Positions 5,845-5,896 of a stretch of DNA of 64,000 nt are shown here, one piece after another. The stretch's first letter is position 1. Every line of letters begins with the position of its first letter. This DNA comes from Escherichia coli (GTDB lineage: Bacteria; Pseudomonadota; Gammaproteobacteria; Enterobacterales; Enterobacteriaceae): the NCBI RefSeq assembly GCF_024502345.1, contig NZ_JALDNN010000001.1; one strand, given 5' to 3'. The translations under genes and the position numbers were made by a program. Below the pieces are notes generated by a model. That model had not been told where the DNA came from. It did no database searches and was given only the letters and a program-made list of their open reading frames with translations.

Positions 5845-5896
5845 TTGACTTCATACTGTGATGTCATACTATTGATGTCATAAAGTGAAGTCATAA
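5845..5896 (+). promoter_or_regulatory. Putative promoter/operator: four tandem ~13-bp repeats (TGAnnTCATA core) directly upstream of the HicA-like ORF
   Basis: ttGACTTCATAc / TGATGTCATAc / TGATGTCATAa / TGAAGTCATAa at 5846, 5859, 5873, 5886; TTGACT (-35-like) at 5845-5850; AAGGA Shine-Dalgarno 6 nt before the ATG at 5906. Confidence 0.5.

Follow-up and report, generated by a model that had tools for sequence, protein, structure and literature searches.

A four-box array in the promoter of a class 4 hicAB operon of Escherichia coli is a predicted operator for autorepression by HicB

Autorepression by HicB at operators within its own promoter is already established for other hicAB toxin-antitoxin systems. 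In Yersinia pestis, HicB3 binds two operators, BS1 and BS2, which flank and overlap the hicA3B3 promoter PhicA3, and in Burkholderia pseudomallei HicB binds a palindrome that lies over the -10 element. The class 4 hicAB systems of the Gerdes 2024 classification are those in which HicB carries a C-terminal ribbon-helix-helix (RHH), and class 4 HicB proteins autorepress via operators. Here, we describe a hicAB operon located between yhhJ and nikR in a 64,000-nucleotide segment of the Escherichia coli chromosome (contig NZ_JALDNN010000001.1; the whole segment is called the window below), together with the array of four short boxes at 5845-5896 on the + strand, delimited by repeat, dyad, and promoter scans, from which this operon appears to be controlled. 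On comparative evidence, we predict with a probability of roughly 0.8 that the four boxes are the HicB operator through which hicAB is autorepressed.

A preliminary description of this DNA reported a unit TGAnnTCATA recurring at 5846, 5859, 5873, and 5886, with a spacing of 13, 14, and 13 bp, and exact matching to TGANNTCATA recovers these four positions. The 10-bp matches read TGACTTCATA at 5846-5855, TGATGTCATA at both 5859-5868 and 5873-5882, and TGAAGTCATA at 5886-5895. The length given to the unit holds only in part, as the TGA..TCA core is conserved among the orthologues analyzed below, whereas the trailing TA is only about 50% conserved in them; the conserved unit emerging from that comparison is an 8-bp core, TGA-C-T/G-TCA. 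Box 1 (TGACTTCA, the consensus core) occupies 5846-5853, at -60 from the hicA start codon, where it overlaps the -35 hexamer and corresponds to the -58/-60 box of the orthologues. Box 2 (TGATGTCA, 5859-5866, -47) lies within the spacer between the -35 and -10 hexamers and is a lineage-specific extra box. Box 3, again TGATGTCA (5873-5880, -33), begins right after the -10 hexamer, spans the predicted transcription start, and has its counterpart at -32/-33, while box 4 (TGAAGTCA, 5886-5893, -20), with its counterpart at -19/-20, is found immediately 5' of the Shine-Dalgarno sequence. Box 4 is the exact reverse complement of box 1, and a repeat search detects an approximate dyad with arms at 5846-5866 and 5873-5893 that are 71% complementary. 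Tandem Repeats Finder reports a period of 13 with 3.4 copies at 5851-5895.

This arrangement is exceptional within the window. Counting both strands, TGANNTCATA has six matches against 1.3 expected, a number reached in 0 of 100 shuffles, and the array in front of hicA is their only cluster, the two further matches being elsewhere. The shorter core TGANNTCA occurs at 23 sites in 64 kb against 14 expected, and 5846-5893 is the only place in the window with at least two such sites within 60 bp; the Poisson chance of finding three more sites within 50 bp of a given one is about 1e-6.

One promoter, of the sigma-70-like type, is predicted by the promoter scan 5' of hicAB, and none inside hicA. Its -35-like hexamer TTGACT is placed at 5845-5850 and, after a 16-bp spacer, its -10-like hexamer TACTAT at 5867-5872, both on the + strand. 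The predicted promoter TTGACT-16-TACTAT is embedded in the box array, in agreement with the overlap with a TTGACT -35-like hexamer proposed earlier. It had also been proposed that the array stops just 5' of a Shine-Dalgarno sequence, and indeed that of hicA, AAGGA, read from the sequence at 5895-5899 on the + strand, follows directly. The hicA ATG is at 5906, giving a leader of about 26 nt that includes the Shine-Dalgarno sequence.

The operon consists of two small overlapping genes on the + strand, 3' of yhhJ: hicA (5906-6181, 91 aa) and hicB (6178-6537, 119 aa), the ATG of hicB at 6178 overlapping the hicA stop codon (6179-6181) in the sequence ATGA. Both had been given tentative roles, a toxin for the first and an RHH antitoxin for the second, and the protein evidence supports both as family assignments. 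The 91-aa product matches Pfam HicA_toxin (3.7e-9, residues 30-80), in line with its AlphaFold model and its annotation by PGAP. The 119-aa product matches Pfam HicB (3.5e-15), with additional weak matches to RHH families over residues 76-116 (Arc 0.018, CopG_antitoxin 0.022, FitA-like RHH 0.35), and its assignment is also supported by profile and model. In the NCBIfam scan neither protein reaches any family threshold, and sequence searches of the PDB, using single proteins and orthologue profiles, retrieved no solved relative of HicA or HicB and only Arc/AmrZ for the HicB C-terminus, so that family placement is based on Pfam and on predicted folds.

The AlphaFold model of HicB (pLDDT 83.5) comprises strands 9-12, 15-22, 27-32, and 40-43 followed by helix 46-67, an N-terminal part which corresponds to a partial RNase H-like HicB fold according to Pfam, model, and Foldseek. 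After an extended segment, the C-terminus shows a strand at about 79-85 (KTFTLRY) and helices 87-99 and 104-118. When the model is compared with the PDB by Foldseek, B. pseudomallei HicB, Y. pestis HicB3, and E. coli HicB rank best; the first six matches all belong to HicB systems (five HicB chains and the HicA3-HicB3 complex 4p78), with probabilities of 0.97-1.00 and E-values of 9e-3 to 6e-2. Against Arc/AmrZ in the PDB, the C-terminus scores E = 0.27 as a single sequence and 0.018 with a profile of 28 orthologue sequences, and the alignment of the C-terminal 40 residues sets FTLRYP of HicB against FNLRWP of Arc, with T80, T82, and R84 facing Q9, N11, and R13. In Arc, Q9, N11, and R13 are the base-reading residues. 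These scores are individually weak but agree with one another and with the model, which points to a C-terminal RHH in HicB. By its HicA fold, HicB fold, RHH, and gene order, hicA first and then hicB, this operon is a class 4 hicAB.

To follow the boxes outside E. coli, we used a HicB search that gave orthologues at 60-84% identity across Enterobacterales, and a scan of one genome per species that gave 49 hicAB loci, in each of which hicA was located and 130 nt upstream of it were read; 42 of the 49 had usable upstream regions. The most widespread 8-mer is TGACTTCA/TGAAGTCA, found in 41 of these 42 regions. Over the 100 nt 5' of hicA, TGACTTCA reaches a density of 22.4 per kb, compared to 0.044 per kb over the other 136 kb of these loci, an enrichment of about 500-fold. 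The usual layout places boxes at -71, -58, -32, and -19 from the ATG, with a spacing of 13/26/13, and is observed in Pectobacterium, Brenneria, Serratia, Xenorhabdus, Buttiauxella, Cedecea, Leminorella, and others; Trabulsiella has 13/27/13, and Pantoea retains the proximal pair only. The flanking genes differ and the flanking sequences are unrelated between genera, yet the boxes persist, and an alignment anchored on the proximal pair shows strong conservation in the box columns but not in the spacers. The promoter is found at a fixed place in this layout. The -58/-60 box has a T in front, which makes TTGACT, i.e. the -35 is T plus the box, and a TATAAT-like hexamer (TAAAAT, TAGTAT, or TATAAT in the relatives) lies 16-17 bp past the -35, its last T being the first base of the -32 box. 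The promoter thus appears sandwiched in the predicted operator, with boxes at the -35, over the transcription start, further upstream, and in the leader by the ribosome-binding site.

Of the E. coli boxes, which lie at -60, -47, -33, and -20, boxes 1, 3, and 4 match orthologue positions. The distal box (-71) is missing because its position falls at the yhhJ stop codon, the module boundary. The position of box 2 is occupied by weaker sequences in the nearest relatives (TGCTGTCA in Citrobacter sedlakii, CGCTATCA in an Enterobacter, and TGCTATCA in Klebsiella pneumoniae), and most genera have no box there. With its extra box and its lost distal box, the 13/14/13 array of E. coli therefore appears as a compact lineage variant, four in a row and seen in E. 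coli, Citrobacter, and Klebsiella, of a general two-plus-two design. The ancestral distal box would have been lost at the insertion boundary by the yhhJ stop, and the extra box gained in the promoter spacer.

In a profile search across 1.8 billion representatives, 526 relatives were recovered; the full-length ones at 30-45% identity diverge in the strand predicted to read DNA. Remote loci without upstream sequence or with an uncertain hicA start (L056, L060, L061/L062, and L065/L066) were excluded. In the E. coli paralogue found in the order flhA-hicAB-yafL, HicB is 43-45% identical, the strand reads KRLTLRV, and boxes TGACACCA and TGACGTCA occupy -73/-60/-33/-20. The copy on a Salmonella IncFII plasmid (HicB 52% identical, strand KSFTLRY) has four perfect TGACGTCA boxes at -75/-62/-33/-20. 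Homologues with the strand G(K/R)F(S/N)LR(V/I), at 35-40% identity, have boxes AGTACCA, AGTACTA, or TACCAT, 13 bp apart, over a -35 of the TTGACA or TTGATA type. Homologues with a K(T/S/R)(F/L)TLR strand thus keep TGAC..(T/C)CA boxes, while those with a G(K/R)F(S/N)LR strand have (G/A)TAC(C/T)A boxes in the same 13-bp register; at one such remote locus (L063), a sharp maximum of the 7-mer autocorrelation falls at 13. In this small sample, the register seems to be conserved while the box changes along with the β-strand of HicB, as expected if HicB reads the boxes.

The same comparisons bear on the possibility that the boxes are promoter elements only, forming a strong constitutive promoter with no repressor, which we consider improbable. 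Box 1 includes the -35 TTGACT, the -10 abuts box 3, and any promoter would be expected to conserve a box at its -35. Nevertheless, the same 8-mer stands at -19/-20 in the leader and at -71/-73, 5' of the -35, two places that sigma-70 does not contact in a sequence-specific manner, the boxes occur in both orientations, and the remote homologues hold the 13-bp register even where the changed box no longer resembles TTGACA.

Natural variants of the array are frequent. The four-box array is present in about 1270 genomes, and an allele that has lost exactly one 14-bp unit, leaving three boxes, in about 800 of 5426 complete E. coli genomes. This deletion (window 5859-5872, compared with 1655-1670 of L001, from strain CFS3313, and with L003) arose by recombination between the identical boxes 2 and 3, and it eliminates the TACTAT -10. 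In 764 three-box genomes the sequence is identical to that of CFS3313 over 71 bp, including ATG-TAA at hicA codons 1-2; for this allele, the RefSeq annotation starts HicA at a CTG, giving 76 aa. The HicB protein is identical in the three-box and four-box alleles (same protein accession as in O157), and one Escherichia sp. genome combines three boxes with an intact hicA. In K. pneumoniae CP052389.1 (a plasmid record; L071, 640-720), hicA is almost completely deleted, and the orphan hicB, 82% identical, adjoins nikR, so that the adjacency of hicB and nikR is common to E. coli and Klebsiella. This orphan hicB still has boxes spaced 13/14/13, TTGACTTCA, tgctatca, TGATTTCA, and TGAATCAT, fused directly to the ribosome-binding site. 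Since the boxes remain with hicB after the decay of hicA, HicB rather than HicA is argued to be their reader.

It would be very improbable, in our judgment, that the boxes are instead read by a HicA-HicB complex or by the basic N-terminal extension of HicA, and not by HicB alone. Members of this HicA subfamily do share such an extension of about 29 residues, basic, conserved (LRKKQxxTLxQIF), and predicted to form two helices, and the HicBA complex of Streptococcus pneumoniae binds DNA slightly better than HicB alone according to the literature. However, the K. pneumoniae orphan hicB keeps its boxes after deletion of hicA, about 760 E. coli genomes retain three boxes despite the stop at hicA codon 2, and the recognizable DNA-binding fold belongs to HicB.

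A neutral origin of the array, as a functionless tandem duplication made by replication slippage at the edge of an inserted module, could account for several of its features. Boxes 2 and 3 are identical 10-mers, and the natural allele minus exactly one 14-bp unit indicates that the repeats do recombine or slip. In hicAB-free genomes, similarity ends exactly at the yhhJ stop codon (position 135 of a 1-kb query, window 5834), placing the beginning of the hicAB module about 11 bp before the first repeat, and the array thus starts only 11 bp past the end of the homology. We nevertheless regard this origin as highly improbable, given the roughly 500-fold enrichment of the box upstream of hicA and the presence of boxes at the same distances from the ATG in genera whose HicA is 55-75% identical and whose inter-box spacers have diverged.

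Least probable of all is binding by a host regulator, NikR or CRP, instead of HicB: NikR half-sites TCATAC do occur at 5852-5857 and 5865-5870, nikR is the adjacent gene, and the literature describes CRP-type sites at the hicAB operons of K-12 and B. pseudomallei, but the element conserved in orthologues is TGACTTCA, not TCATAC, and the boxes accompany hicAB to loci far from nikR. For CRP, only a half-site TGTGA at 5857-5861 was found, whose partner ACTAT matches TCACA at one of five positions. The NikR operator consensus is GTATGA-N16-TCATAC, to which 5829-5883 fits as a dyad only with three mismatches, i.e. at chance level (19 matches against 17.7 expected). A perfect GTATGA-N16-TCATAC dyad is found elsewhere in the window, at 12017-12044, presumably in front of nikA.

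Operation of the array as a HicB operator is the reading we prefer. The boxes appear to combine what characterizes an antitoxin operator, namely repeats over the operon's own promoter, conservation together with the gene pair, and, in the small sample of remote homologues, change together with the DNA-binding residues. In the proposed mechanism, two HicB C-termini would pair into one RHH head, whose β-ribbon (K79, T80, T82, and R84) would read one box, and HicB would form a tetramer with two such heads, like HicB3 of Y. pestis and HicB of B. pseudomallei. At least two tetramers on the boxes, from -60 to -13, could then exclude RNA polymerase and repress hicAB, possibly as a cooperative array of dimers, while an excess of free HicA would loosen HicB from the DNA and lead to derepression, as in the hicAB systems that have been studied.

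Several points weigh against the operator prediction. The searchable literature gave no binding, footprint, transcription-start, or reporter data on this hicAB, and the RHH is assigned from a model and from sequence scores that are weak (E about 0.02). The 49 orthologous loci were retrieved with peptide patterns including KTFTLRYP, which makes the invariance of the reading strand among them partly a matter of construction. Boxes 2 and 3 (TGATGTCA) have T at position 4, where 77 of 86 boxes have C and three have T, and are therefore possibly weaker sites, and the conservation of box 1 could partly reflect its role in the -35. The geometry also differs from that of classic cooperative RHH operators, which are spaced 8-11 bp and, for Arc or MetJ, bound on the same face. 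Calculated at 10.5 bp per turn, a 13-bp step amounts to about 1.24 turns, which rotates each box by about 86 degrees with respect to its neighbor and places boxes separated by 26 bp on nearly opposite sides of the DNA; the proposed stoichiometry and cooperativity are therefore tentative.

The constancy of the register raises the idea, tentative and rather doubtful at present, that RHH-lineage HicB proteins share an operator grammar, new with respect to the HicB proteins studied so far, of short direct-repeat boxes in a fixed 13-bp register, typically as two pairs bracketing the promoter. With the same reserve, we could imagine that the geometry of the HicB oligomer dictates the register, whereas the sequence of the boxes drifts along with the β-ribbon. 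If this were true, the heads would spiral round the DNA, or the DNA would wrap on a HicB tetramer or filament, a departure from the binding of one palindrome per dimer assumed for characterized HicB systems. Paralogous hicAB operons in one cell could then stay insulated or cross-talk, E. coli having at least two with related boxes.

Apart from this idea, the analysis gives a concrete operator prediction: a core TGAC(T/G)TCA in a 13-bp register, with the place of each box defined with respect to the -35, the -10, and the hicA ATG. The HicAB system concerned is carried by about 38% of complete E. coli genomes, O157:H7 among them. The natural variants (four-box, three-box, two-plus-two, and two-box layouts, and the orphan hicB) offer material for dissecting HicB-DNA recognition, and the small co-variation series ties ribbon residues to box sequence. 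The autoregulatory design expected of type II toxin-antitoxin operons is confirmed by this prediction, not altered.

HicA itself shows some particular features. Its AlphaFold model (pLDDT 95.6; helix 30-39, strands 43-46, 51-56, and 59-64, helix 74-86) has an α-β-β-β-α core with two extra helices in front, contributed by the conserved N-terminal extension of about 29 aa, and its best Foldseek matches are B. pseudomallei HicA (TM 0.64-0.67) and E. coli HicA, with weak E-values, the domain being small. Among 23 aligned homologues of the subfamily, G49 and R51 are invariant and S50 is present in 22, while H64 and H67 (FHRPHP) are also invariant. The canonical HicA motif is G-S-H, with a catalytic His; an Arg would occupy that position in the present HicA.

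The genomic setting of the operon is variable. In the window, rbbA and yhhJ precede it on the + strand, ending at 5834, and the nik operon converges on it from the - strand, nikR occupying 6657-7058. The gap between hicB and nikR, which converge, contains an AT-rich hairpin at 6592-6624 with a perfect 15-bp stem and a 3-nt loop (AACTGAACTTAATTT TAT AAATTAAGTTCAGTT), a folding z-score of -3.5, and a T-rich tract after it, which is probably a bidirectional terminator ending the hicAB operon. No Rfam covariance model matches 5600-6800 at E <= 1. By way of its yhhJ or nikR ends, the 1-kb query found a match in 5415 of the 5426 complete E. coli genomes, and at least 80% of it is covered in only 2070 of them (38%), which gives the frequency of the hicA-hicB operon between yhhJ and nikR; in the covered genomes, RefSeq/PGAP labels the genes 'type II toxin-antitoxin system HicA family toxin' and 'HicB family antitoxin'. 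One further hit (H20), examined for the right-hand limit of the module, proved to be a rearrangement associated with IS1. The O157:H7 genome has the hicAB module but a different island downstream. There (L002, 3850-6850), homology stops 11 bp past hicB, and the island between hicB and the nik operon encodes a class II aldolase, an HPr-like protein, an FGGY kinase, and a galactitol-type PTS component. The searchable literature gave nothing specific to this hicAB system, nor to the box sequence together with HicB; one O157 paper names hicA/hicB without stating which hicAB locus was measured.

Other hicAB loci of the same lineage deserve mention. The flhA-hicAB-yafL pair (L053, 857-917, and L069) is a second, paralogous hicAB in some E. 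coli, and the resemblance of its boxes to those of the yhhJ-nikR copy prompts the question whether the two cross-regulate. In two metagenome hicAB homologues (L059, 905-946, and L063, 715-752), a predicted -10 (TACTAT or TATTAT) stands almost against the start codon of hicA, at a distance of 0 to 6 nt, and their mRNA is therefore possibly leaderless or nearly so, unlike that of the E. coli operon. In Ralstonia phage Dina (L070) and 48 other Ralstonia phage records, a hicAB of this lineage, with a HicB 42% identical, lies between tail genes and has GATAC/GTATC-type repeats upstream.

Comparison with the characterized systems shows both how familiar and how distinct the present operon is. It shares with HicA3-HicB3 of Y. 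pestis the order hicA then hicB, a HicB fold with a C-terminal RHH, and two operator regions flanking the promoter, the one at the -10 being the main one in the HicB3 system; HicB3 is also among the best structural matches of our HicB model. However, phmmer and profile searches find no sequence similarity between the two HicB proteins, the HicB3 operators are two 15-bp inverted repeats whereas the present boxes are 8-bp pseudo-palindromes arranged as direct repeats in a 13-bp register, and hicA3 and hicB3 are 174 bp apart whereas the present genes overlap (ATGA). HicAB of B. pseudomallei (PDB 6g26 and 6g1n) is the top Foldseek match of the HicB model and of the HicA model alike, and its HicB is a tetramer with exposed RHH domains that binds over the -10 and whose DNA binding is disrupted by HicA. 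It differs in having a single palindromic site instead of a four-box array, and the two HicB proteins are only 9-11% identical in the structural alignment. HicAB of E. coli K-12 (operator hicO, promoter P2) comes from the same species and has a toxin of the same family, and there HicB represses and excess HicA derepresses. Nevertheless, it occupies a different locus, has two promoters including the CRP-Sxy dependent P1, and its HicB uses a helix-turn-helix whereas the present HicB would use an RHH. Finally, the occupation of several short sites by several dimers, which we predict for the present array, is shared with Arc, MetJ, CopG, and omega, even if here the DNA-binding domain is fused to a toxin-neutralizing HicB domain. 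In that group sites repeat every 8 bp (MetJ), 7 bp (omega), or 11 bp (Arc), compared to 13 bp in the present array.

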